Source of the DNA: Octopus vulgaris
Lineage: Eukaryota
Length of the DNA: 64,000 nt
Assembly (NCBI GenBank): GCA_951406725.2
Contig: OX597818.1
Span: forward strand, 118,234,001-118,298,000
Reading direction: 5' to 3'
Numbering within the stretch: the stretch's first letter is position 1; every line of letters begins with the position of its first letter. Below are positions 6,335-59,755 of the stretch, piece by piece. The translations under genes and the position numbers were made by a program. The notes beneath the pieces were generated by a model. It saw nothing but the letters and a program-made list of their open reading frames with translations. It was not told the origin of the DNA and did no database searches.

Positions 6335-6860
6335 TTTTATTTTTATAGCGTGCTTTCACTTCACTACCGAGCGCAGCTCTGTGTGCCTTGGGTATGTGCT
6401 GTGATTTGTTGTGATGCTCTGATGGTTATTGTATGGAAAGTGTTCTGCGTAGGATGTGTGCGGTGCCTAGTAGTGCAATTTTCTGTATGTTATATGTGTT
6501 TGTAAGTCCTGGTGTTTTTGTTATGTATTTGTCTGAATATTTTTTTATCATGCCTAATGCACCTACTATGATAGGAATTGTTTCTGTTTTCAGATTCCAC
6601 ATTCTAGTTACCTCTATTTCCAGGTCTTTGTATTTTGAGAGTTTCTCCATTTCTTTTAGAGACACGTTGTCATCAGCCGGTATTGATACATCAATTAGAA
6701 AGCATTTTTTTTCTTCATGATCTCTGATAACTATATCTGGTCTGTTGGCCTTAATTTCTCTATCTGTGTGTATCCCAGAGTATGGTTGCTTTCTCGTTTT
6801 TGTGACCTTTTCTGGTGTTGCCTATACCATCTTTTTTCTGTTGTTATTCCATAATGTTGG

Positions 6861-8147: not shown

Positions 8148-8529
8148 TGTTAAATGTAATATTTGACAATTATTCGGTAGCCATTATAAAACTCCGGGTT
8201 TCGGATGCAGCGGTGGAAATCCACGCCGCTATCTCTTTAGTTATCTGGCCATCGGAAAAAATGCTATGAAAATGACCTGCAATTTTCTCCAAAAGTTTCT
8301 TAGAGTATAGTTCCCTTGATACTATAGGTATGTTTTTCATAGAATAATCGATGTAGTAGGCGTCCATACTCGATTCTTCTGCGGGGTAGAGCCCGCAGGC
8401 GATGTCATTTTCATAGCTTTTTTCCGATGGCCAGATAACTGAAGAGATGACGGCGTGGATTCCCACCCCGGCATCCAAAACCGGAGTATTATCATAGCTA
8501 CCGAATAATTGTCACATATTAAATTTACA
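8148..8529. mobile_element. PLE derivative: inverted pseudo-LTRs with hammerhead motifs around an ORF start
   Basis: Inverted arms 8148-8276 and 8404-8529, each with a type I hammerhead motif. The spacer encodes MDAYYIDYSMKNIPIVSRELYSKKLLEKIA on the minus strand (8367-8278), resembling the YS.KNIP N-terminus of Neptune-like PLE ORFs. Confidence 0.75.
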
Positions 8530-17156: not shown

Positions 17157-17387
17157 ATAAAAGAAAATCAGCGATACACACATATGTGTCTCTCGGAATT
17201 TTCTCAATATATATTACATCCGTTTCAATTATTATACAATGTATGGCAATGTTGCCTAAGTTTGCGAAGACAAGTTGTACATTAACATCAACAATCTCCG
17301 TAGTATCTGGAATAATACGTGTCTGAATATTTTATCATCAAGTGCAATAGATCCGTGAAGCTTCTACGGATTCCGTCCATCAAATAT

Positions 17388-17622
17388 AGGCGGCGAGCTA
17401 GCAGAATCGTTAGCACGTCGGGCGAAATGCTTAGCGGTATTTCGGCTGCCGTTACGTTGTGAGTTCAAATTTCGCCGAGGTCGCCTTTGCCTTTCATCCT
17501 CTCGGGGTCGATAAATTAAGTACCAGTTAAACACTGGGGTCGATATAATCGACTTAATACCTATGTCTGTCCATGTTTGTCCCCTCTATGTTTAGTCCCT
17601 TGTGGGTAATAAAGAAATAGGT
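17388..17622 (+). mobile_element. Full-length tRNA-derived SINE (family S1, MetaSINE-like core) with 15-bp TSD
   Basis: A-box-like TAGCAGAATCG, B-box GAGTTCAAAT, core GCCTTTCATCCTCTCGGGGTCGATAAATTAAGTACCAG. TSD TTCCGTCCATCAAAT at 17371-17385 and 17623-17637. Confidence 0.9.
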
Positions 17623-17971
17623 TTCCGTCCATCAAATTTTGTTTACGTCTTTATTATCATCGAATGCACTGTAAATGGCACTTTTTGAAGATGCCATGCA
17701 CCGAAATTGAAAGAGAGGACACTTGGTAGTAAAAGAGCCTCTTAATTTCTCGGCCCTTATTGTGTCGATATAGGCATAGGTAGACACACACGCACCATAA
17801 TCTTGGCACACATTTACATACAAGTATATAAACGCACGCACACAAACACGAACGCTCACACACGAATACTAACACGTATGATTTTATATATATATATAAA
17901 CATTTATACATACAAACACACCCACACCTACATACATACACACATACATACATACATACAGACAGACAGGA

Positions 17972-24390: not shown

Positions 24391-25294
24391 GTATATACAC
24401 GCAACCACATAATATTGAAGTCATAGTGGAATACAGTAACGTTTCTTTTGCATATTTTAAAAAAGCTACTCCAAAGTCGGGTTAATATAGTTAATATATG
24501 AAAATATAGGAAATATCTGTAGATATTGTACGCCTATGTTTCCATATACATTCGTTTCTCGGGAAGGAGAGCAGAAGTTTGATAAATTTATTCAGCCTGA
24601 TTGTTAAAAGGAATTATAAAGGCAGCTTAGAAATTGATTGGCAGTTTAGGGATTGGGGAAAATTAAAATGATCGAAAGGAAAAGATACGAGTACACAATT
24701 TGCATGATAAAGAATTTAATATGGACGACATTTACTTGGAGCAAAACAACTTCTCAATTTTTCCAAAATTACAGTCGTTGCTAAGTGCAAGTATCTTATC
24801 AGATCTGTCATTCTTCGATGTTAGTATTGAATGTACACACATATAATCACCCCTGTTAATCATCATTTAAACTAAACTATGTTCTGGTCTAACAAAAGCA
24901 CAAACTGAATTCTATCATCATGATAAGAAATTAGCATAACTGTTTCACCTGCAAATGCTCCGAGGAAGACAAACCACAAAAGCACAAGAAATATCATGAT
25001 AAAATTGGAAAAGGTACTGAAGGACATTTATTTACGTGCGCACGTGTGTTCATGTGTGTGTGAATCCGCGTGTAATTTATGAGTTTGTGAATACGGTTCC
25101 CAAACAAGGATGTGTGTTATGTTAGGATTCTAAGACCGGTTGTCCGATTTCTATGGCGTACAATAACTGCGATCACAACTTACCGCTGAAAGAGTTGCCT
25201 GTCTATTTCAGGAATCAAGATGAGCAAATATTGAGAAACTGGGTGAAAGTAGATTATACCAAATTAAAATGCAAAGAACCGGATGAAGTGCTGC

Positions 25295-25960
25295 AACGAC
25301 AGGTGTCTTTCTACTAAGGACGAATTAAATTAAGCTGGCGTGTGTGGAAGTGAAGCCTTACGACTGGAACATAAGAGATAAAAGTCATGGGAAGGAATAT
25401 AAGGTAGCCGTCTCTTTGTATTTTTCTCTCCCTTCCTTTCCTAATTCTTCAATTCCTCTACCCACTACCTCTATCCTCTCCTTCCACGTGAGCGGTGTTC
25501 GACCAAGCCTGACCTTTCTTTCTTGATTCGACCACCATCCGTGCAGCAGCTCTCGTATTCATCCCACGACTCCCACCTTCTATGTTCTTGCCATAAGGTT
25601 TCACTGTCAAAAGGCCCACGTAGTTTAATTCGTCTTTAGTCGAAAGTCAACTGTTGTTAATATCCTGTTGTTTGTACTTGTAATTGTGTACCATTTCTCC
25701 GATCTTTTTTGCGCCCTTGTTATCGTATACATTCGCTTGCTTTCTTCTTCCAAAGAATCCAGTGCCCTTAGCTTAGATTTTCTTGGGGCCGGCCAGATTA
25801 GAGCAATCTCGAGTGTAACCGGCCGCAACTGTAAAGACGATCTGGTACTCGACTGTAGATTGACACTCTGACTGATCCGTCCTTGTTTATTCAGTCCTTT
25901 GTTTGTATTGTCTAACTGTCCGAATGTCTTAATGTCACTTGTTACGCTATTGTTCCATTA
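25295..25960 (+). mobile_element. Interspersed repeat family P (PLE-like), with upstream inverted partial copy
   Basis: About 25545-25930 is homologous to about 41110-41485. 25295-25410 is a diverged inverted copy of about 25545-25660. Confidence 0.7.
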
Positions 25961-26084
25961 TTTTTTTTTTATATATATGCATATAGCGGCGTACGTACAC
26001 TTTTGGTCTCTTGTATGTAAATTTGTGTGTGTGTGTGTGTGTGTGTCTGTATCTGTGTGTGTGCGTGTGTGTGTGTATGTATGC

Positions 26085-26264: not shown

Positions 26265-27120
26265 ACCTATAACATCGTTATATAACATATGACGATGTAC
26301 AATTTTCATATAAACACACAAGTAATTAACATGGAAATAGAAATCATGTGGGTGTATACAAATATAAGCAACTAACAAACAATTTCATAATGCAGTATTA
26401 TTCGCGTATCTTAGTTTTCGGACATTAATTTTAAGAATTTCATGAATAATTAAAGATATTCCCAGTTTTACCACAAATTGAATATTTTTGTAATCTTCAG
26501 GTTTCGCAGTTCATCGGATTATCATTTTTAGTGATTTGGTTTCTACATTTCTGTGCGTCGAAAAACATGTTCGCTGGTTTGAGTCTGAATAATAATCGTT
26601 GCCTCAGAATTATAAATGTTTTTTTACAAGCAAATTGAACTATTGTTACTTGAGTAATCAGGAAAAAAATGACGTCAGTATATTCTCTTGTCAGTTTTTA
26701 CGGAAGAGACATATAATCAAAGAAGATAATTTTGTAACCGTCCCTAGATAGTTGAAATATTATAGAGATGGAATTGCTGTTTCTACTCAGTTCAGTAAAC
26801 GCGTATAGTTCTTCTCAATGAATAGTAGTGTCTAGGATTTTACCTAGAGTCATGAGGATTTAAATACCAGTCCTTGCTAATCATGATAATACTCACTTGA
26901 TCTCACTTGGGTTATCACAGGGTGGCATTTACAATTTCAATATAGTAATAATATATAGCAATACTAAAAATGATAATTGTAGTATTGATAACGGCCGCCC
27001 AAAGGTACTATAACGGGCATGTGATGGTCAATAAGCAATAATTATTTACATAACGAAGTACATATGGCCAAGCTTGTATACTTTTGTATATAAATAATTG
27101 TTGATATTATTAATACTTCT

Positions 27121-28010
27121 AAGGTGGTGCGCTGGCAGAAACGTTAGCATGCTGGACGAAATGCGTAGCCGTATTTCATCTGCCGCTACGTTCTGAGTTC
27201 AAATTCCGCCGAGGTCGACTTTGCCTTTCATCCTTTCGGAGTTGGTAAATTAAGTACCAGTTACGGACTGGGGTCGATATAATCGACGTAATCCGTTTGT
27301 CTGTCCTTGTTTGTGCTCTCTGTGTTTAGCCCCTTGTGGGTAGTAAAGAAATAGGCATTTCGTTCATCCTTGCGTTCTGAGTTCAAATACCACTGAAGTT
27401 GAATCGCCTTTCATTCTTTCGGGGTCGATAAATCAAGTACCTGGGGTCGATGTATTCGATAAATTAAGTACACTGGGGTCGATGTAATCGACTCATACCC
27501 CACCTCCCACAAAATTTCGGGCCTTGTGCCTAGATTAGAAAAGAATGTTATTCATACTTCTAAGACGGAGAGCTGGCAGAAACGTTAGCATGCTGGTCGA
27601 AATGCTTAGTGGTATTTCCTCTGTCTTTAGGTTCTGAGTTCAAATTCCGCCGAGGTCAACATTGCCTTTGATCCTTTTGGAGTTAATAATTTAAATACCA
27701 GATGCGTAGTGCTTCGATCTAATTCACTGACCCCTCCCCCAAAATTTCGGGCCTTGTGCCTAGAGTACAAATAAAATATTATCAATTATTCTGTGAAGGC
27801 GGCGAGCTGGTAGAAACTTTAGCACGCCGGGCAAAATGCTTAGCTGCTTTTCGCCCGTCTTTACGTTCCTAATTCAAGCTACACCGAGGTCGACTTTGCC
27901 TTTCCTCCTCTCGGTGTCAAGAAAATAATACCTGTTGAGCACTGGGCTTGAGGTAATCGACTTACACCCTACTTCGAAATTGCAGGTCTTATTTCAAAAT
28001 TTCACACCAA
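27121..28010 (+). mobile_element. Head-to-tail array of four S1 SINE units
   Basis: Units start near 27121, 27356 (headless), 27562 and 27796. Each has the B-box region and core. Confidence 0.9.
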
Positions 28011-30299: not shown

Positions 30300-30982
30300 C
30301 TTTGTTTTTCAGTATTTCTCCCCTGTTCGTCAAATTTTGCGATGGCTGAAACGAAGGGACAGTGTGTTCCCGTGAATTACATTTTTCCTGCTGGAGAAAG
30401 CGGCTGCCGAACCAGTTGTAATACTTCAAACAGCTTACAAGGACGCTACCGGGAGAAAAAAACAAGGTTATGAATGGTTTTCACGCTTTAGCACTAATAA
30501 CTTGAGGAGCAACCGCGCTCAGGGCGACCGTCGACCTCCAAAACGAAAGAAAACATCATGAAAATTCATGAAATGATTTTGGAGGACCGAATAATAGACG
30601 AACTTTTTGATATCGTTGGTATGTCCTCGAGCTCCTTCCATTTTCAGCTAGAAATTGCGAATGAAAATATGTGCCTCGCTCGCTCATGTGAGATGAAAGA
30701 ACAGTTGGAAGTTGATCCGGACCCCTTTACGAAGGTAATCAGTGGTGACGAAAGCTGGTGCGACGAAATTTGCAAATGTGGAAGAGGGGGAAAAAAACCC
30801 ATGTGTTAAAAGGCAGTACTTCGCAAGAGTTCCAGCAATGTTTCCGACAATGGAAAATGCTTCTGGACCGATCACTGCTTCAAACGGAGACTACTTTGGA
30901 GGTGATAAAAGTGTAAACTTGTAAAACCAAGTGAATAAAATAATACTGCAAAATTGCAGTGTCTTTTATGTACCCCCTCATA
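30300..30982 (+). mobile_element. Degenerate, internally deleted mariner transposon
   Basis: ...GYEWFSRF / LEEQPRSGRPSTSKTKENIMKIHEMILEDR... VISGDESW (first catalytic Asp motif) ... GDYFGGD. Ends in TIR-like TTTTATGTACCCCCTCATA. Confidence 0.85.
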
Positions 30983-31262: not shown

Positions 31263-32819
31263 CTAGCAGAGATACCAGGCGTTGCTCGGAATTAAAATAG
31301 TTTGCATATATATATTATAGTTAGATTGAAAAAGATGACACGGCAAAGTGCTGCATTGACAAGACATTTGTGGAGTATATGATGAGCTAATTCGAGTAAC
31401 CTATTTCTTTATTACCCACAAGGGGCTAAACACAGAGGGGACAAACAAAGACAGGCATAGGTATTAAGTCGATTACATCGACCCCAGTGCGTAGCTGGTA
31501 CTTAATTTATCGACCCCGAAAGGATGAAAAGCAAAGTCGACCTCGGCGGAATTTGAACTCACACCGTAACGCAGACGAAATACCGCTAAGCATTTCGCCC
31601 GGCGTGCTAACGTTTCTGTCAGCTCGCCGCCTAATTCGAGTAACCGATATGTCACGCGTTCGTGTGGAGTATACCAGTAATGGGGGATTGGGAGCGAAAG
31701 GGACCATGTGATTTTAGAACGCACCGAAAAGCTGTCAGTGGATATACTCTCCTTAGCGGTGGTCAGCGTTGCATCTAAGACGACCCGTCGCCTGACGTTT
31801 TGAAACCTTCGTGTGTGTTTGTTGCCCTACATCACTCATAAAGTAAATTTAGAGAAACTGTGGTTGTTCATTTGTGGGCAACAGGAAAGCAATGAGGTGA
31901 TAGACTTGCTTAAATCCTTGTTCAGCTATCTCCTTAGATGCACCAAACGATGTTATTTGAAATGCAGAGTTATATTGTCTGATATTGTTCAGAAAATCCT
32001 CTGATCGGATGGAAGTACGTTCCAGAAGATCCATAAGAGATAGAGGAGGAGGTGGTAGTTCTGTCAATATTACATTATTGTCTGAGCAGCACATGGTATT
32101 AGTTATATTTGCAGAAACGACAATTTGAGTTTAGCCCATCAGTTTGGACAAAATTATCACTTTTATGAGAATGGGATTTACCATATCCGAAAGCAGCTCC
32201 AGAAGTTGCTGATCTTGGGAAAGTCTCATCTCCCTCCGCTCATGAGACTACTTTTGATATACTGCAGCATGCATTTGCTGATCTTGGGAGGGTCTCTCTT
32301 CTGTATTGAGACTCCATCTGACATGCGTTGGTTGATCTTGAGAATGTCTCATATTGCTTCTGCCTTAAAACTCCATTTGATTCGCTGCAGCATGTGTTTA
32401 CTGATCTTGGTAAAGTCTCATTTCTCTTCTCTCTTGAGACACCATTTGACGTGTTGGGGCATGCCTTTGCTCATCTTGAGAAAGTGTCATCTGGTTTCTG
32501 TTTTGAGACTCCATTTAATGTGCTGCAGCATGAGTTTGCTGATCTTGGGAAAGTCTCAAAGATATAACTGAAATAAGATGAACTTAGTGTTATTACATTA
32601 GAATTAAAAATGAAAGAATAAAAGCGAAACTATTATTTAACGCGTTATGCAGAACCAGTGCTAATGTTATATTATTTTAATCCAAATGCAAAACAAAAGT
32701 TACATGATGGCAATCACGGGGCCTGATACTATTAGTTGTAAAATTTTATTTGAATTGGTCGAGCCGTTTGAGAATGCGTAGGTAACAGACAGAGAAACAA
32801 AGAATTTTATATACACGGA
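31263..32819 (-). mobile_element. Internally deleted Helitron with RepHel N-terminal remnants
   Basis: 5' A|TC at 32819; 3' hairpin CCGAGCAACGCCTGG and CTAG|T at 31263. ORF 31849-32094 (CC...LTELPPPP...FLNNIRQYNSAFQITSFGA...QVYHLI..LLP...PQFL) is typical RepHel pre-Rep sequence. 69-bp repeats at about 32205-32560. Confidence 0.9.
31401..31632 (-). mobile_element. Full-length S1 SINE nested in the Helitron
   Basis: Complete S1 on the minus strand. TSD CTAATTCGAGTAACC at 31387-31401 and 31631-31645. Confidence 0.92.
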
Positions 32820-36565: not shown

Positions 36566-36989
36566 ATTACTAATTAATCTTATAATTTCAGTTAATCTAC
36601 CCTCTGTACATTGCATGATTTTTACCATGGATATGTATTCAAACGTTCTTTACACCATATTTTTACTGAGTTCCCCATAAGACGGGATATAAAAATTGGA
36701 GATGAGATTTCATTCACTTTACTCCATTCGTTATTTACCTACATCGTGGATTCATAGAAATAATTTTTTTCAAATTCTTGTCCCAAAGCTAAGGTTAATA
36801 TTAGCGTCGGATAAATATACAACACTTATGCTTGAGTGTTAATAATATTATATAACCTGAAATATGAAGCAAATATTACTCTTGCCAATCGCTATTCGAC
36901 AATTTCCATATTATATTTATTCATTCGTTGGTACTCGTCTTCATATTTTATCCGTTTTATGTCTTGTTCATTTAATATTTATTCATTTG

Positions 36990-37720
36990 AAGGCAGTGAG
37001 CTGACAAACGTTAGCACGTCGGGTGAAATATTTAGAGGCATTTCGTCTGTATTTATGTTCTGCGTCCAAATTCCGCCGAGGTCGACTTTGCTTTTCTTCC
37101 CATCGGGTCGATAAATTAAGTGCCAGTTACGCGCTGGGATCGATGTAATCGACTCCATCCCTTTGTCTGTCCTTGTTTGCACCCACTATGTTTAACCCTC
37201 TGTGGGCAATAAAGAAATAAGAAACGTTTTTAGTTCAAATTCCACCGAGGTCGACTTTGCCTTTTATCCTTTCGGGGTCGATTAAATAAGTACCAGTTAC
37301 CCACTGGGATCGATGTAATCGACTTAAACTGTTTGTCTGTCCTTGTTTGTCCTCTCTGTGTTTAGCCCGTTCTGGGTAGTCAAGAAATGGGTATTTCGTT
37401 TGTCTTTAAGTTCTACGTCTAAATTCCGCCGAGGTCGACTTTGCCTTTCACCCTCAGGATCGATAAATTAAGTACAGGTTGCGCACTGGGGTCGATCTAA
37501 TCGACTGGTCCCCTTCCCCCAAATTCCGGGCCTTGTCATTAGAGTAAAAAATAATATTTGTTCATTTGAAGGCGTTCTGAGTTCCAATTTCCGCCGAGGT
37601 CAACTTCGTCTTTCATCCTTTCGAGGTCGATAAATTAAGTGCCAGTTGCATACAGGCGTCGATGTAAATAACTGCCCCCCTCCCCAATTTCGGGCCCTGT
37701 ACCAAGAGTAGAAAAGAATA
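36990..37720 (+). mobile_element. Head-to-tail array of four S1 SINE units
   Basis: Four repeats of B-box plus core, starting near 36990, 37225, 37391 and 37570. Confidence 0.9.
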
Positions 37721-39426
37721 TTCATTTGTTTATCTGTTGAAATGTCCTTAAGAATCATTATTACAATTGAATATCGCGACTGATTATCACGATAAGCACA
37801 ACTGAAGCTTATATGGTCGTAGTGATGAGAGATATATTCATATCTCTTACACATGATTTCATTTTGCTGCATACCTCTATTCTTCTTTCCATCAGTTTAC
37901 AGCTCCTTACCTTTTCCGCACAAACCTATTGGATCGACGCGCCGCATATTTTCGTCACAAATGCTCTGATTCTCACCTACGCAGTTTATATATTTCTCCA
38001 TTAGGAAAAGTGTATCCTGTCGGAATATCTGCTTTCTACGTTTACGTAATGACATCAATCCGATGGCATCTATGACGAAGGTGTTACAAATAATGGAGCT
38101 GGTTTTTTACACAGAGAAGAAAAAGAACACTTGTTTACAATAACCGTATTGAACAATCGATATTCATACAAATACCTGGCTCTTAAAGCTTTCAATCCTT
38201 TCCCAATAAACTATACACATACTGATATTTATGTAATTCAAAACAGTCCTACGTAGGAAATAACATTCCGGGCCATTATTTGAAAACATAATGTTGCGTG
38301 ATTCAGTAACAGGGCGCCACTGAACGTAGCAAACATATTTTAGATTTCAGCTGCAATTTTGATATTGAAATATAATATCAAGTTATTGATACGTTAACAG
38401 GTGTATTTAAGTATGAAAATATACAGAATTAAACACAACGTGAGTTATTGAAATTCTTGATGGTGGATAAGCATACTTTCATTTTGAACGGTAACATAGA
38501 CACGTTCTTAAAAAGATGTTTTGTACATTAATCCATAGTTGAGATTAATTTCTTTTACCATATTCTTATACCTGTTAATACCGATGTTTATATAGATCTA
38601 ACATCTAAAGATTGGCAAGATTTTTTCTGTGGGTGTTGCCCATTATCTAATCTTTTCTCTCACATTCTTGGATTGGCTTTATATGATGCGATTATAGTTT
38701 ATCGTGTAAGAAAAATTAGTTTTATAAAAATTGGACGGCGAATTATTGTGAGCATTGTGGAAAAGCACACTCCGTTTGGTATTTAATCTTGAAGGAACTA
38801 TTAAGAATGAACATTGATATGAATCACTGATGAAATGCATGTACAAAATACATCTACAAAAATAACTATAGTAATGATTTCTCATACAAGAAAAACGATT
38901 GAAATTTTGTTTGAAACGTGATTAACTTAATAAATGATTAGGAATGCTAACGACCTCGTACGACTCCTTCTTCACGCTTAAATATATAGAAAAATAGAGA
39001 AAAAAGCGGTTGAAACTCAGACAAAGAGGGTAAGTCATAGAACCGCGTAAATTTGATCTTATGACACATATAAAAGAGAGCTTTTTGCATATATTCGAAT
39101 ACCGACTCTCAATTCTTACGAGGGCGTAAAAAAATGCGTTCCTTTTCTACAGCTAACATGACAATCTCTCCCTTATATAAGTTGTCTTCGTTATTTACCA
39201 TCATTGTTTTCGTATTCTGTGCATGCATTTAAAAATGGGTGCTTTTATGCTATTGGGTTTGTCTGCCAAAAATTAATTGTGTATGTAGCAACTGAAGTTT
39301 AGTTTCATGTTTACCTTTATTCGGCTTATCTCCATTATAATATTTTATTCTATAGTCACAAAACTTGATATTTAGGGGTGGCTTAGTCTAATACTGCATC
39401 TGTAAGTAAGTATGTATGTATGTATG

Positions 39427-40225: not shown

Positions 40226-40554
40226 CAACACACACACACACACACACATAGTAAACAAACACACACCACATACAAACAACACACACACAGAACACACACA
40301 CCCACACACAACGCACCCACATATATCACATATACACATATATATATATATATATATATGGTAGTAGTAACAGAAAAGAGGAATTTCGGTTGTCCCCACG
40401 TGGTGGATTGTAATGTATATAAGAAATTAAAAAAGGAAAATACGCATGCTTACATGGTTATAATATGATTTTTAATCTATCGAACGGTTTCGCAATCGCT
40501 ATTCATGATATAATGTTTAATTTATATGAATATATATTTTTTCTTATATATATA

Positions 40555-41520
40555 AACGACAATAGAACATTCGGACAGATAGACAATACACAGGCAGGCA
40601 GGAAAAACAACAATTAGACGGACAGGCAAAAAAAAAAGAAAACAAGGACGGGTCATTCGTGGCCTTGTTTGTTAAGCCAAGTCACCATATGTACTTACAG
40701 TTTCGGGCAGTCACACTTCAGACTGTTCGATCTGGTTACCCCCATTTTTTAAATATGTTTGTATACTCATAGCTGCGTACGCACACACTTGTGCCCACCT
40801 CATAGTAAGTATGTATCTAAATTTTCTACGACTCTTTTACACTGTCTTTTAGTCTCCTCATTCTTTCTTCCTCTTTTCTTTTTCTCGCTCCCTATCTCTC
40901 TCTCTTTCTCTCTCTCTCTCTCTCACACACACATTTCTTGTTTCTCTTTTTCTTTAATTCCTACACTTCCTCCTTTTTTTAATCTCCCCTGTACCTTTCT
41001 CTTTGTCTCTGATTATTTCCAATCTGTCAATACCGCTGCCCGCTACCTCTCTTTCCTCCTTCGACGTGACCGGTCTCCGGATAGCCATGATCTTTCTCTT
41101 TTGTCTTGATTGCCGACCGCCAACACTTCTTATGTCCAATTCCGACGTTCCTGCCTCAAGGCTTTCATTTTCTACTCGCGAGCTCAATTTGGTTCGTTCT
41201 CAGTCGAAAGTCACCTGTTGTTATATTCTTGTCGTTTATATTGGTAATTGCCTACCATGTTCTCCGTCGTTTGTTTTTGTTACTGTATACATTCGTTAAC
41301 TCTCTTACAAAAAATCTCATGCCCTTGGCTTAGACTTGTTCGGGGCCAACCAGACCGAACAGTCTGAAGTGTAACTGACCGAAACTGTAAGAACAGCTGG
41401 AAACTTAACTGAAGAAAGAAGGCTATGAATGACCGTTCCTTTTTCTTCCTATCTTTCTGATTGATGTTTGACCTGTCCGAATTATTTTATATTCTTCTAT
41501 TGCGGTTTTGTTCCATTATA
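40555..41520 (+). mobile_element. Interspersed repeat family P, second locus, with upstream inverted copy of its 3' part
   Basis: 40555-40745 on the minus strand is homologous to 41342-41500 on the plus strand. The element ends in (TA)n. Confidence 0.7.
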
Positions 41521-42100: not shown

Positions 42101-44430
42101 ACTTTTTTTTCCTTCTTTCAAATTTGCTTCCATTTCTTGCCGAGTGTCTTCCCAACTCCTAGGGCAAAGAAACTCATAGTATATATTGGTAGGCCATTAA
42201 ACCAAACTCAGTAGTTCGTTCATTTTTTTTTTTTAAAGTTAAATTAAAATACATGAGCAGCAACAGTTCTCACATCAACAATGCTCTTCTCAATACGTGT
42301 GATGTACCAGTTAAGACAATCTTTTGCACTTCTTGCAGGGATGGTAAGCCAGGGATCATTCTCATATAATTTTCGGTTCCCTTCTTGATCATTTCTAGTG
42401 CTCCTACGATCACTGGTATTGTAACCGCCTTGAGATGCCACATTTTCTCAATTTCAATGAGTAGGTCTTTATATTTTCTGAGCTTGTCAAACTCTTTCGC
42501 TGAGATATTATGATCACAGGGGATGCTCATGTCGATCAATAAGCAAACTTTATTGTTTTGGTCTTTCACAACAATATCTGGTTTATTAGCCTTGATGGTT
42601 CGGTCTGTATGTACTGGAAAGTCCCACAGAATGGTTACATTTTCTCCTTCAGTTACAGCCTCAGGGTGGTGATTATACCACTTGTCGGCAGTTTTGATAT
42701 TGTAATGCCGACTTATTAGCCAGTGGAGATATTGGCCAACTCTGTCATGTCTTAATTTATACTCCACTGGTGCTAAGACTTTACATCCAGAGATTAGGTG
42801 GTCCACTGTTTCAATCATGTCGTTGCAGAATCGGCATAATAGGGTTAATAGGCTTTGATCTTGAGCAGCCAGGATGAAACCTTCGCTCTCTGCTTTTAGC
42901 CCTGAGCTCCGTAGCCACTGATGGGTTTGCTTCTGGTCAACATCAGCTTGTTTGCTGCGGGTCACATATTTGCCGTGCAGAGGTTTCTCCTCCCATCTAT
43001 CAGCCAGTTGCTCGTGCGCTTTTTTCATTGCCATCATTTTCACCTTCTTTGCAACAATAGTTGCCGTACTTCCCTCGGGTTGTTCAGTTTGGGTATCCTG
43101 CACGAGATTAATAGCAAATTTTTTGCTTTCCTTTATGAGAGAATGAAGCTTCTTTCGTCTCTCGTGATTTTCCACGAGCTTTAGCATCCAGTCATTCGAT
43201 ATTTCGAGATATTTGGCCAGTCCAATTGTGGTTGTTTTGTAAGCTAGTTCAAATTGGATCAGGCCTCGAACTCCTTGGGCTCTGGGAAGGTAAAGGCGAT
43301 CTACGTCTGCCTTTGGGTGGTGCATCCTATTACAACTCAGCAGCTTGCGTATTTTTCTATCTATATTCTTTACTTCACTCATATTCCAGTTCAACACATT
43401 GTAGCTATAAGTAACAACTGGAACTGCTAAGGAATTTATAGCTAACACCTTGTTACGTGCATTTAGTTCAGATTTCAGGACTGCACGAACTCTCCTATAA
43501 CATTCCTTCCTGATTTTCTCTTTCATGCTTGCATGCTGCATACCAGAGCCTTCATTTATCCCTAAATATTTGTATGTTTGTTCTTGCTCAAGCTCTCTTA
43601 TGACTGTGTCAACATCTAACACGACTGAATTTGTGGTCTTCACTTTCCCTTTCTGGAAAGTGGCCTTGGCACACTTCTCAAGTCCAAACTCCATCTCGAT
43701 GTCATCGCTGAATGCTTTCACGGTGCGCAATAGGTCTTCAAGTTCATTATTGTCTTTACCATAAAGTTTTAAGTCATCCATATAAAATAGATGGCTTATT
43801 TCTTTATTGACAGTTTTATACCCATACCCTGTTCTGTTTAATTCACTTGTAAGGGGTATTAGGGCTATGCAGAATTTTGAAGATGTCCAGCGATCTCAAG
43901 ATCCATGGATGCGGTATACTGTCGAAGGCCTTTTTGTACTCAATCCATGCGGTGCTGAGATTTCTGCGCTTGTTGTGACAGTTCTCAAGGATCATACGAT
44001 TGATTAGCAGTTGATCTTTGCATCCGTAAGAGCCTCGGCGGCACCCTTTTTGTTCAGTGGGGAAAATATCGTTCTTCTCCATGAATGCATATGTTTTTTC
44101 CGCCAGGATAGATGTTAGGATTTTATACGTGGTGGATAGACAGGTTATAGGCCGATAGTTTTTTGGAAGGTTGGTTTCGTTATTCTTTGGGAGTAGGTAA
44201 GTAATGCCACTTGCTAACCATTCAGGTGTTTTCTTTGGGTCTCTCATAATTCCATTGAGCAGCTGAACTAGCTTACCGTGTGCGCATGGGAGCGATGCGA
44301 GCCAGAAATTCGGCACCCTATCTTTACAGGGGGATTTCCAATTATGGGCCTTCGTGAGTGCCTTTCTTAGGTCTGCTATTGTGATGTCTTCCCATGCTTG
44401 TTGTTGTAAATTTTGGTAGGATCCTTCAGT
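42101..44430 (-). mobile_element. 5'-truncated R4/Dong-clade RLE non-LTR retrotransposon (family B)
   Basis: RT motifs (NYRPITCL, EQKGCRRGSYGCKDQL, KKAFDSIPH, FYMDDLKLY), CCHC finger, RHD and KPDIVV..ID endonuclease motifs, 3' UTR. Flanked by (TAA)n. Confidence 0.95.
42270..44316 (-). pseudogene. Disrupted reverse transcriptase / restriction-like endonuclease ORF
   Basis: ORF-track frames 43843-44316 and 42270-43781 are out of frame. The RT QGDxLSP region is missing at the junction (about 43870), and the spacer between AAQDQSLLT and CRFC is shorter than usual. Confidence 0.9.
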
Positions 44431-45215: not shown

Positions 45216-45934
45216 CTATGTTTGACTTTTGCTTTATATTTGTACAAGTTGGCTCCAAGTCTCACCCAGAGACCTCAAGAGACAACAGGGTTGGAAGTTC
45301 ATGTTGTTGTTATGCCTAGTGTGCCATATATTTGGGGGGTGGGGATGTTGTACTAATGAATGTCTAAAAAGAAAAAAAAAGGTTTTTTTTTTTTTTTTTT
45401 TTTTTAAACCGAAAATTATGTTTGTTTTAAACCTTGAGATTACATAGAGAGTATTTTGCGTAGGATATGAGCAGTTCCCATGAGCACTATCTTTTGAACT
45501 TCTGCCATTTTTGGGTTTCCTGGTATCTGAGTTAGGTAGCTATCAGCCCCTATTGCTATCATTCCCAGGGCACCTATGACAACAGGTATTGTTTTAGTCT
45601 TCAGCTTCCACATTTTGCTGATTTCTATTTCAAGATCTTTATATTTGCTCAGTTTTTGGTAGGTCTTGACAGATACGTTTATATCGATTGGGACAGTCAT
45701 ATCAATGAGGAGGCATGTTCTTTGTTTGAAGTTTTTCAATATGATGTCTGGCCTATTTGCATCTATCTTCCTGTCAGTTTGAATGGTGAAGTTCCAGAGG
45801 AGTGAGATGTGGTCATTTTCAAGCACTGGGGGTGGTTTGTGTTCCCACCAGTTTTTTTCATGGGGCAAATCCAGGTTTTTACAGATTACCCAGTGAATAT
45901 ATTGTGCAGCTCTATCGTGCCTGTTGAGATACTC
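45216..45934 (-). mobile_element. 5'-truncated R4/Dong RLE element (family C)
   Basis: EYLNRHDRAAQYIHW...QTDRKIDANRPDIIL...LLIDMTVP...KYKDLEIE...GTAHILRKILSM, with a distinct 3' UTR and (TAA)n tail. Confidence 0.92.
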
Positions 45935-46510
<576 letters not shown>

Positions 46511-46847
46511 TTGTTTTTGCATAGCTTCAATCGCTGTTTTGTGTATTCACAATAATTCAATATCACCTTGGTAAACATTAGCTTGCATCGCCACACATTT
46601 TGTTTGCCGAATTCTGTAAGAAGCTTAATACTGCCAGCTGTTCACTATCAGTGAACTAAGGTAACACGCCATTATTTTTCGAGCACCTTCCGTAGTATAC
46701 GGTTCTAATCAGTGCTGATTACCGTAATTTATCCAACCTTATTGCACAGCCTATTTAGTCCATGTACTTCTCAAGCTTTTTACTCACTGTTCCCAGGGCT
46801 GCGACAATTATTGGTATAATACCAACTTTGTCAGCGACTACAGTTGC

Positions 46848-52279: not shown

Positions 52280-54040
52280 CATACATGCAAATAAAAAAAT
52301 CTTATAAACTCTGAAGTACATACATACAAATAAAAAATACTGTCAATTTTTGTTACATTATAAAACGAAGGCTTACAATTCCCGTCCTCATTACGTTGAA
52401 CAAGCAGCAATGATTGAACTAGATTTTTCGCTATATATACTCCAGAGGCAAAATTGTACGTCATTATAAAACGTCATCAATCTATAGCGAACTCCCGAAT
52501 ATGAGCTGATAAACAAATACCATTTGCAAATATCTATTCAATCATCTCTCTCTCTTATACTTTGGGAATAAAGTGCCTATATCTTAAAATAACAAGCCAT
52601 TTGATCCATGTCATCTAATATCTGAATAAAACAACAATTACAAATGAAGTAGAAAGTCACACATAATACTCAAAGCAAAAATCTCAAACGAAAATTATGT
52701 TCTACGATTTTGTGTTTTGCATTACAACATAATTATAAATAAGTGAAAATAAAAGCTAAAATCTGTCATAAATAGCAAACAATTGTGTGACATCCCAAAA
52801 TGAAATGTTGTTGCATGCTCATGGATGAATTTAATGTCATTATAATTATGCCGAAAAAAGGTCTTGCGAATATAGAAGAAAGAATTATAATAGGACTTAA
52901 TCAAATGCATAATGATGTTCTACGTAAATCGTTTTGAAGTTAAATAGCGAAAGCAGCATATTGCTAAGCAGACATATACTGATTTAAAGAAATATTTCAT
53001 GAGGCGTGTGTTTTACAACTGAATCCTGTATATTACTGAAGAAAACAGACACACTAATATCTTATAGAAGAGAATAAAAATTAACGAAAAGGCAGAGCAG
53101 AAGAAAACGCATATGTATTCCCGTATTCATTACAACTTCAGAATATAAATTTCTGAATCGGGGAACATGCGATAGGAAAGGTTATATAACTTACAATTCA
53201 TTAGATATTGCTCTTCGTGTTTATTGAGAAGTTATGTTATTTTAATTTTTCTTTTGTTTTATATGGCACTCGTTTATTTTTAAGTATATTTTACGTAATT
53301 CTAATTATATTCTTCCTCAATTTATCGTAATCAGAAGTATGTGATTTACGCGTTGAACAGAGAATAAGTTATGATTTTCAAGAATGTATTGTATAGAAGT
53401 CGGAACACAAAGAAATACATGAACACAGATGTCATCATTTTAATATATGTGTAGAACATTTAGTCTCATGCAAGAATTTTAGAGATATATAGTGCTAGAT
53501 AGACACAGCTGCTTCAGATGTTCATTGTTATATATTTCTTTAACAGACTGGCTTAATGTTTCTCCAAAATAATCCGTGTTTTTCGTAGAAGGTGGTGAAG
53601 CGCTAATTTCATTTTCTATATTGAATCTATTGCGCATTTTGTTTCTCACAATAAACTATCTAAAACAACTTGTCAAACAACATCGTAAAGAATTCTAGCA
53701 TTCTTGCTTCATCATCTTGAATCTCATCCTCAACGGTTGTACTCTGCTTGCGCAAAACAACCATGAATCGTTTAAAGTATATCGAAAATATTGATTGCAC
53801 CAGCTCACGACGCATTGATAATAATAACGTTGCATATCCCCCAACACACTTCCCAAGACATGTATGTCTCCACAGAAAGCGTTCATTGACCTTTTTTATG
53901 TAACTGTTGAATACGTTGGATATATCACACAACCAAACATTGAGACTATTTCCCGTTTTATTACGTATAACTGACCTAAAATAATCGATACACATCATCA
54001 CGTTTTCAATTGTGACTATATAAATAAAATGCCAATGCAA

Positions 54041-54256
54041 TCCTTTTCTACTCTAGGCACATGGCCCGAAATTTTGGGGGAGGGGGCCAGTCGATTAGAT
54101 CGACTCCAGGATGCAACTGGTACTAAATTTATCGACTCCGAGAGGGTGAAAGGCAAAGTCGACCGCGGCGGAATTTGGACTCAGAACGTAAAGACAGACG
54201 AAATAGCACTAAGCATTTCGCACGGCGTGCTAACATTTCTGCCAGATCACGGCCTT
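54041..54256 (-). mobile_element. Full-length S1 SINE with TSD
   Basis: Complete short-tail S1. TSD AATGCCAATG(C/T)AA at 54028 and 54257. Confidence 0.88.
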
Positions 54257-54307
54257 AATGCCAATGTAAACCTGCGACCTATATGCATACATACATACAT
54301 ACATACA

Positions 54308-56574: not shown

Positions 56575-56960
56575 CGCGCTCTATTAAACTCGGAATGTTT
56601 GGAAGAACCCCATTGACCCAATTTGCTGACTTTTCCGATGGCACGAAGGTCTTGATAAATGGCTGAATGACCAAATCCAAGCTACTCTGCTAGTTCCTCA
56701 ACAGTTTCGATGAGATTTTGTTCCACTAGAGTTTGTAGAGCTCTACAGGGCTTCCAGGACGAGGTTGGTATTCTAGGTAGTAGTTTCCCGCCCAAAATTT
56801 CTGGAATCACCGTTGACGCTGGCTTACGATTATTGTCGGTTCCCCATATGCAGCATTAATATTCCTCGGACTTTCCGCTACGTTGCTGCTTTTATACATC
56901 TCATAAAGCAAAATATTCCGAAAATGCTCTTTTCTCACTTCCATTATAACTTTGACAAAT
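56575..56960 (-). mobile_element. Mariner 5' fragment (same family as 58660-59755)
   Basis: Collinear with about 59352-59740 (KEHFRNILLYEMYK...). Confidence 0.85.
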
Positions 56961-58663: not shown

Positions 58664-59755
58664 TTGGTTGACCCCATATATATGTTGTTTTTCATACTTC
58701 TTTTATTTTTCAAATTTAATATGAACAAAGTTATTTTTATTATCTAAAATATACTCTCCTTCATTTTCACATTGCTCTCCCATCTCATTTGTAGACTTGC
58801 AAGGACCCTCTTTAAAAATTCATATGTCTGTGACGAAAAATTCTCCTCCAGTACCTTTCTGACCCCTTCTACAGATTTCATATTTTACCTTCCAGATGAT
58901 TTTGAAGTCTGCGGAATAAATGATAATCAGATGAGGCAATGTCTGGCGAATATGGTGAGTGGGGCATCCTTTCCCATTCAAACTGCTCCAGCCTTTGGAA
59001 TGTCATCCTTGCTGTATGTGGTCGAGCTTTATCCTGATAAAAGAACACTTTTCATCTTTAAACCAAAGATGGTCGTTTTCCTTCTAGCGCTGACATAAGC
59101 CCCTCATGCTATTCGCAGTAGATCTTCTCTGTTAACCCTTGGTTTGGGTTTAATAGTTCAACGCGGGCTAAACTTTTCATATGCCACCAAACAATACCTT
59201 ATGTGGGTGCTGGTGTTTCTCCTTACTCTATCCACTGTCTTCGGCTCTTGGCATTTTTATAGAGAACCCATTTCTCATCACCCGTTACTATTCGATACAA
59301 AAGGGTTTCATTCGTGAGACGTGACAGCAAAGAATATCCCACATTCACCCTCTACGCGCGGTTAAACCTCGGAAAGTTTGGGAGGAAACCATTTTGCCCC
59401 AATTCGCTGGCTTTTCCGATGGAACGCAGGTCTTGATGAATGACTGAAGGCCCAAATGGAAGCTTCTCTGCTAGTTCTTCAACATTTACGATGGGATTTT
59501 GTCCCATCCGGGTTTGAAGAGCTCTACAGATCTTCCAGGACGAGGCTGGTCTTCTAGGTAGTAATTTCCGGCTCAGAATTTCTGAAAACACCCGTAGACG
59601 TTGGCGTACGCTTATTGTCCGGTCCCCATATACAACATTAATATTCTTCGCACTTTCCGCTACGTTTTTGCCTTTATACATCTCATAAAACAAAATATTC
59701 CGAAAATGCTCTTTTCTCGCTCCCATTATAACTTTGATAAAAAGAACTGTTCATA
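58660..59755 (-). mobile_element. Near-full-length degenerate mariner transposon
   Basis: N-terminal HTH region (ORF 59352-59726) and catalytic motifs QDKARPHTA and PHSPYSPDIASSDYHLF, with multiple stops and frameshifts. TIR-like TATTTTGGTTGACCCCATA at 58660. Confidence 0.92.

Follow-up and report, generated by a model that had tools for sequence, protein, structure and literature searches.

Candidate hammerhead ribozymes with a split core in a non-coding Penelope-like repeat of Octopus vulgaris and in Naiad elements

Permuted hammerheads and their host elements

Hammerhead ribozymes have been described as three blocks, S, G and C, which can be joined in six orders (Eckert et al. 2023, PMC10085705). 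In that scheme block C, comprising a stem I strand, the CUGANGA box and a stem II strand, was assumed to be uninterruptible. Type SGC, represented by HRIMA-1 and its variants, cleaves in vitro; it has a fourth helix, in which the sequence following stem II pairs with the one preceding stem I, and in some SGC ribozymes this interaction helix is joined directly to stem III. For type CSG, the same source had only two sequences, both metagenomic (PMC10085705).

We analysed a repeat found in a stretch of 64,000 nucleotides of the Octopus vulgaris genome (contig OX597818.1, positions 118,234,001 to 118,298,000 of the forward strand), which we call the window. An earlier note had described hammerhead boxes in this repeat in the non-circular order 1-3-2, and this order is confirmed: the site, GAAA and CUGANGA blocks of the window family run S-G-C, a layout that does not fit the circular types I, II and III (CGS, GSC and SCG). 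The S-G-C order itself is already known, as type SGC. The window RNA resembles that type in the order site-GAAA-CUGANGA, the short linker between stems I and II, the fourth helix and the pseudoknotted core. It differs from type SGC in that the 5' strand of stem II, together with the fourth-helix strand that goes with it, is placed 5' of the site, and in that both strands of the fourth helix connect with stem III, some families showing a kink-turn pattern there. Block C is thus split, at A9/G10.1, so the window RNA is not a member of type SGC, and the split lies outside the six orders of Eckert et al. By analogy, we infer that it may work as type SGC does.

Three kinds of element invite comparison as hosts. 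Animal non-LTR retrozymes are probably moved by Penelope-like elements (PMC7229834; bioRxiv 10.64898/2026.07.22.740005). Like them, the window repeat forms non-coding tandems with one hammerhead per unit, has a low GC content and coexists with Penelope-like elements; unlike them, it has the split layout in units of 800-860 bp, where retrozymes have a type I hammerhead and ~150-450 bp. The minimal type I hammerheads of Penelope-like elements (PMC4209133), which lie in the pseudo-LTR and are dimer-dependent, are similar in the processing of tandem precursors that has been proposed for them. They have the order C-G-S and a stunted stem III, unlike the window family with its full stem III of 5-7 bp and non-circular order. 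Naiads were reported without a canonical hammerhead, some being marked as having a core or half-core (Craig et al. 2021, PMC8557442). The window repeat shares with Naiads partial tandems, inverted 5' pieces, a tail, a preference for (TA)n and the ribozyme layout that we find in 11 of 47 Naiad ends, including Naiad_Obim and Naiad_Ovul; unlike Naiads, it encodes neither reverse transcriptase (RT) nor nuclease. Our literature searches, with incomplete coverage of subscription journals and bioRxiv supplements, returned no report of this layout or of permuted hammerheads in Naiads.

The repeat, its core boxes and its relatives

The repeat that carries the scrambled boxes is a non-coding, non-autonomous Penelope-like element of ~800-860 bp, with the boxes in its 3' part. 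Copies of the family have a fixed 3' end on (TA)n, 5' truncations, partial tandems or an inverted 5' piece, and sometimes a tail. Partial tandems, 5' truncation, an inverted 5' piece and a microsatellite target constitute the anatomy described for Penelope-like elements in PMC8557442, and all four are seen in the window's repeat. The three ribozyme copies in the window, A, B and C, belong to this one family, and their features are as follows.

40745..41520, plus strand: full unit of ~780 bp, subfamily 1, ending at a (TA)n run; placed by blastn to family loci and by the anatomy of relatives
40551..40744, minus strand: inverted, 5'-truncated second copy adjoining the unit at 40745, placed by blastn; carries the decayed third ribozyme copy, copy C (40651-40744)
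25414..25961, plus strand: subfamily 2 unit truncated on its 5' side; an inverted piece lies at 25257-25399
41344..41348, plus strand: copy A, 5' strand of stem II, located upstream of the site, with G10.1 at 41344; partner 41376-41380, 4/5 paired
41350..41355, plus strand: copy A, outer helix 5' strand; partner 41395-41400, 4/6 paired
41357..41358, plus strand: copy A, predicted kink-turn, GA of the strand without the bulge; the bulge with the second GA lies at 41389-41393, where this copy has A in place of G
41359..41364, plus strand: copy A, 5' strand of stem III and the GUC triplet; the cut is predicted to fall after C41364 (C17), a site placed by analogy with hammerheads
41365..41370, plus strand: copy A, stem I strand 3' of the site; partner 41403-41408, 5/6 paired
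41376..41388, plus strand: copy A, block G, with stem II 3' strand (C11.1 = 41380), GAAA (41381-84) and stem III 3' strand
41403..41415, plus strand: copy A, stem I partner strand and CTGAAGA (41409-15), with no stem II strand after CTGAAGA
25787..25859, plus strand: copy B, the second ribozyme copy; stem II 25787-92/25819-24, 6/6; outer helix 25793-98/25840-45, 6/6; kink-turn GA at 25801-02 and 25833-37

Every box of the earlier note was found where it had been placed. In copy A, stem III (41359-63/41384-88) is paired at 5/5 positions; in copy B, stem I (25809-14/25847-52) is paired at 6/6 and stem III at 4/5, and the core carries two base changes (GCAA, CTGTAGA). The core of copy C, which is found within 40551-40744 on the minus strand, is decayed. 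None of the three window copies passes a strict descriptor of the layout. All three are old and probably dead. The inverted piece that carries copy C abuts the 5' end of copy A's unit and so probably belongs to the same insertion.

CUGANGA with a free N7, GAAA and an NUH triplet are present in the majority sequences of all seven subfamilies and families considered, and N7 is A, G or U among these majorities. Within subfamily 1 all four bases occur at N7 (majority 14/29), while the CUGA-GA positions are kept at 170/174. The triplets seen in the alignments are GUC, AUC, GUU, GUA and AUA. CUGA-GA and GAAA are near-fixed in the subfamily alignments, and the triplet is always NUH.

A descriptor of the layout matched three times in 800 kb of random genome, all three matches falling in the window's family, and it gave 0 matches in reversed, complemented and 10 locally shuffled sequences; the pattern thus exceeds what chance would produce. 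Strict-descriptor passes (8/29, 4/28, 6/24, 1/1, 26/29, 15/24 and 7/24, with 0/3 in the window) roughly track age. The note had allowed that the family might contain an ordinary type I hammerhead. A descriptor scan of a young tandem on both strands found no type I, II or III layout, that is, no stem II after CUGANGA, and an Rfam search of a young tandem gave no hammerhead match. For the window, no hammerhead was among the Rfam matches listed (150 of 194).

Genome searches with the four subfamilies produced 792, 2541, 2139 and 1255 first-look candidates, of which 40 per subfamily were scored. Seven matches to the family profile and six more to related profiles were present in 800 kb of random genome, and a rough extrapolation from these small counts to the 2.8-Gb genome suggests ~25,000 copies of the family and ~45,000 when the related profiles are included. 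One random genome stretch held a very young subfamily (subfamily 4). All 40 of its scored hits are 100% identical over 201 nt with an intact core, and a 46-nt piece of the core has 720 exact copies genome-wide (control 0). Units of this subfamily stand head to tail at a spacing of 845-861 bp, with 39 of 63 unit ends (from 30 overlapping loci) running into a next unit, and have no long reading frame; the cut site predicted by analogy lies 142 nt before the fixed 3' end. We regard this subfamily as the candidate active form. A descriptor scan of the fetched loci revealed three more repeat families, Q, R and S, with other stems in the same layout. As in non-LTR retrozymes, non-coding tandem units carry one predicted hammerhead each.

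None of the sequencing runs listed as best holders was an RNA run. Three RNA runs, whose organism code differs from that of the best holders, contained 486, 651 and 355 reads that matched an old copy of subfamily 1 at 82% likeness; the ends of these reads did not pile up on that copy, and the runs had 0 reads on the young subfamily.

Several other features were seen in the repeat and in the window. Junctions of subfamily 1 tandem units (40801-40851, plus strand, in the window; loci such as L062 and L079) hold GTAAGT ... TTTTAG over ~48 nt, which resembles a short intron of the kind found in the 5' leaders of Penelope. Subfamilies 1 and 4 and family R share a CACGTG box. Elsewhere in the window, broken LINE-like RT frames (541 and 195 aa; RVT_1 E 4e-7) at 42270-44430 on the minus strand, with related pieces at 6426-6821 and 45440-46546 on the same strand, are unrelated to the ribozyme repeat. 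A SINE-like repeat of ~240 bp has more than 10 copies, some in tandem (17387-17633, 27104-27990, 31398-31633, 36979-37722, 54040-54258 and others). A long near-perfect inverted repeat with ~140-bp arms at 8158-8520 is MITE-like, and its Rfam match to MIR821 is far below the cut-off. Finally, 56584-56959 and 59362-59741 form a pair at 84.7% identity with a third piece at 30501-30809; the translations of these pieces resemble mariner transposase fragments.

Stem II, the outer helix and the fold

The earlier note had drawn stem II after a 5-nt spacer behind CUGANGA, in two of the three copies. That stem does not hold up: 28.6% of its cells are paired, below several slid controls. Stem II is formed by the strand before GAAA and a strand upstream of the site, and in this form it can be drawn in all three window copies (4/5 pairs in copy A, 6/6 in copy B and 5/5 in copy C, the last read from the printed sequence). 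The upstream strand is the best partner in 7/7 majorities, with 5-6 Watson-Crick pairs in five different sequences and always G10.1-C11.1. Subfamilies 1-3 have GGGCA/TGCCC, GGCCGG/CCGGCC and GGCTGG/CCAGCC, and subfamily 4 is alike with one wobble; related families have GAAGG/CCTTC and GAGCA/TGCTC. Stems I, II and III therefore flank the boxes as in a hammerhead, with G10.1-C11.1 closing stem II. Because the 5' strand of stem II lies upstream of the site, the backbone is open between A9 and G10.1, and the layout is the SGC/CSG knot opened at that point.

One could suppose that the RNA is an ordinary type SGC hammerhead with stem II right after CUGANGA, in which the upstream strand pairs as a mere side structure. 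The sequence following the core does offer 4 pairs with a 1-nt bulge in families Q, R and S, a weak, wobble-rich option, but these include only 1 Watson-Crick pair in a row and are worth 0 to -1.5 kcal/mol, against -4.6 to -5.4 kcal/mol upstream. The window family has no stem II at the distance of 1-2 nt after CUGANGA that marks type SGC, and none of the four subfamilies of this family (P) has a partner starting within 2 nt after the core. We consider this explanation very improbable and keep the upstream stem II.

We assessed stems I-III, with the upstream stem II, in an alignment of 35 rows, made up of the first 10 hits from each of subfamilies 1-3, a single subfamily 4 member, L221 and window copies A, B and C. 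Of 593 cells, 90.1% are paired, and double-sided changes occur at 10 of 17 pairs, a count that derives from a handful of subfamily masters and not from independent lineages. None of 500 shuffles reached the paired share or the covariation score, and slid controls gave 14.7-39.3%. In families R and S together, stems I and III are 95.3% paired with 5 of 10 pairs double-sided, a count of the same derivation. Stems I and III of the earlier note thus covary across subfamilies. Against this, two shuffle measures rated as more robust to relatedness were not significant, either for stems I-III (double-change pairs 41/500, further pair types 434/500) or for R and S (153/500 and 500/500). The outer helix and the stem II of R and S were read directly from the sequences; MAFFT alignments misregister both by 1-2 columns. 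Energy folding without pseudoknots did not single out the fold, with z from +0.07 to -1.63 in 8/8 cases. Judged from sequence, the order, boxes and stems of the structure are strongly supported.

Conserved pairing need not mean cleavage. The structure might cut too slowly or not at all and serve as a recognition signal for RT in priming or packaging, or the pattern might arise from a coding frame on the minus strand. Hammerheads of Penelope-like elements have low activity in vitro (PMC4209133), and the open A9/G10.1 link lies outside the published block rule (PMC10085705). Subfamily 2 also has a near-open K/R-rich frame on the minus strand in which some of the stem changes are synonymous. That frame has no Pfam match and is broken in subfamily 1, and every minus frame across the core contains 3-8 stops in subfamily 4, R and Q. 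We rejected it as the cause of the pattern, as the layout recurs with unrelated sequences and stops interrupt the frame in the young families. Against a mere signal, four sequence-distinct families differ in all of their stems, yet the catalytic boxes are fixed and the triplet is always NUH. We therefore think either explanation unlikely and treat the RNA as a candidate self-cutting ribozyme. Across copy B, at 25625-25957 on the minus strand, there is a stop-free K/R-rich frame of 110 aa, which probably stems from the purine-rich strand; an old coding origin is possible.

The pairing CCAGAT/ATCTGG, which the note had added to stem III as an extension, is instead a separate fourth helix, the counterpart of the stem I/II interaction helix of type SGC. 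This outer helix joins the outer strands of stems I and II and is complete (6/6) in copy B; subfamily 4, R and S have different versions of 6-8 bp, read directly, with 8 pairs in R and 6 in S. A kink-turn consists of a 3-nt bulge followed by tandem G-A and A-G pairs, has a standard angle of 50 degrees and is bound by L7Ae/15.5k (PMC5689011). The joint between stem III and the outer helix shows this pattern in subfamilies 1-3: one strand reads GA, and the opposite strand has a 3-nt bulge followed by a second GA. In subfamily 2 the bulge is more variable (67/84) than the two GAs (54/56 and 51/56). The pattern recurs in octopus Naiad ends and is degenerate in the youngest subfamily (4). Families R and S and Naiad_EuTe lack it and resemble straight rods.

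The RNA has the shape of a long hairpin whose loop contains the site, GAA and one strand each of stems I and II; the partner strands flank the hairpin base. The loop must therefore dock on a base, either its own or that of another molecule. In a crude triangle model, ~28-32 A separate the helix axes even at a 50 degree kink, so closure in cis needs slack; for a straight rod the distance is 62-76 A. Because of the kink-turn pattern and an arm-end gap of ~30 A rather than 62-76 A, we favour the cis fold for the window family. With a confidence slightly better than even, we propose that the RNA [stem II 5' strand]-site-GAAA-CUGANGA would fold as a single knotted molecule and cut itself after NUH. 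The kink-turn between stem III and the outer helix would bend the hairpin back so that the loop docks on the two strands at its own base. G10.1 would be brought in from upstream with A9 and G10.1 unjoined, and the known 1-nt bulge at that spot suggests that the core could tolerate this; the outer helix, by analogy with type SGC, would clamp stems I and II.

The main rival is that the same ribozyme is active only in trans, with the loop docking on the base of another copy, in a domain-swapped dimer or the next tandem unit, so that tandems would be cut and single units or circles spared. The rod-like relatives give it most weight. Naiad_EuTe has a 10-bp stem III running into a 5-bp outer helix over a 1-nt bulge, and the coral Naiads have 13+10 bp with one bulge (both read by eye from the PMC8557442 sequences). 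The purine-rich loop retained in families R and S is symmetric and would not bend, and a straight rod leaves the gap of 62-76 A. Penelope minimal hammerheads cleave as dimers (PMC4209133), and young copies often stand in tandem (39/63 unit ends). The kink-turn pattern of the window subfamilies and octopus Naiads, on the other hand, fits a fold-back, and SGC monomer constructs cleaved co-transcriptionally, in experiments for which the available part of PMC10085705 reports no test of concentration dependence. We hold cleavage purely in trans to be possible, though doubtful. The earlier note had called the fold sterically implausible in a monomer and suggested an obligate dimer; the first claim is weakened by the kink-turn consensus of the window subfamilies and by the SGC precedent, and the second is kept, with stem II corrected, as the rival, best supported in the rod-like relatives.

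Naiad ends and the proposed role of the ribozyme

We read by eye the last ~420 nt of 47 of the Naiad consensus sequences in PMC8557442. The 11 ends with the split layout are Bfor (stem I of 2-3 pairs), 3_Chem (with an extra hairpin), Amil, Aacu, Anas, 2_Movir, Plae, EuTe, Obim, Ovul and Esco (imperfect stem II), among which Amil, Aacu and Anas are near-identical to one another. Another six ends, from nematodes (1-3_Nbra, Hcon, Hpol and Asuum), contain an intact type CSG. The remaining 30 show neither the split nor the CSG layout within the last ~420 nt. At least some of the nematode CSG ends have an extended helix between stems I and II. Naiad-1_Movir terminates in a twister-like motif. Bivalve and hemichordate Naiads and two from Clytia have another conserved 3' motif, GCGGGTG ... 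AGCAGG ... GCTYAC ... CACCTG, which may be a structured or catalytic RNA.

In the octopus genome, an 18-nt motif of the published octopus Naiad 3' end has 279 matches (control 0). The layout is present in these ends, with 5 of 20 loci passing the strict descriptor. By eye, the 20 inspected of the 279 are short truncated copies with no RT frame within 1.5 kb, so their tie to RT rests on the published Naiad consensus. Four short motifs from the 3' part of the window's element had no match in the PMC8557442 supplement, and the window family is linked to Naiads by RNA layout alone. The genome also holds intact autonomous GIY-YIG elements with 781-aa frames, which likewise end on (TA)n; their 3' end differs from that of the window family, and a comparison of 30 such loci with the family's 3' sequence gave no convincing DNA match and one weak match of 60%. 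An autonomous Penelope-like family at L187 and L192 has many 781-aa frames with RT and GIY-YIG of equal score; its 3' end, read by eye, has a promoter-like block in tandem repeat and a minimal type-I-like hammerhead whose core is altered.

The scrambled RNA is likely to be the ribozyme that was thought to be missing from the Naiad group. More broadly, we think it reasonably probable that Naiads and their non-coding passengers have hammerheads built as one reverse-order knot opened at different points. The knot would take the form of CSG in nematode Naiads and of a seventh, split-core layout, with A9 and G10.1 unjoined, in ctenophore, cnidarian and cephalopod Naiads and in the tens of thousands of repeat copies here; some families would close it in cis by a kink-turn, while rod-shaped ones would cut only as loop-to-base dimers. 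One cut per unit of ~860 nt would free unit-length RNA from tandem transcripts, as has been proposed for non-LTR retrozymes. A Penelope-type RT and GIY-YIG nuclease acting in trans would then copy this RNA into (TA)n sites. The 781-aa GIY-YIG elements could supply these enzymes, with no clear 3' sequence in common with the window family.

The young subfamily, with its hundreds of identical copies, is a ready substrate for cleavage tests, and a core with free ends at A9/G10.1 would be a new port for ribozyme engineering. If the proposal is true, it breaks the rule by which stem II directly continues the CUGANGA block and adds a layout missed by standard descriptors and Rfam, and a kink-turn or dimer switch would show how these elements time the cut. 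It would also move non-circular permutation of RNA from rare environmental RNAs to abundant animal retroelements, and it would answer directly why Naiads seemed to be without hammerheads.
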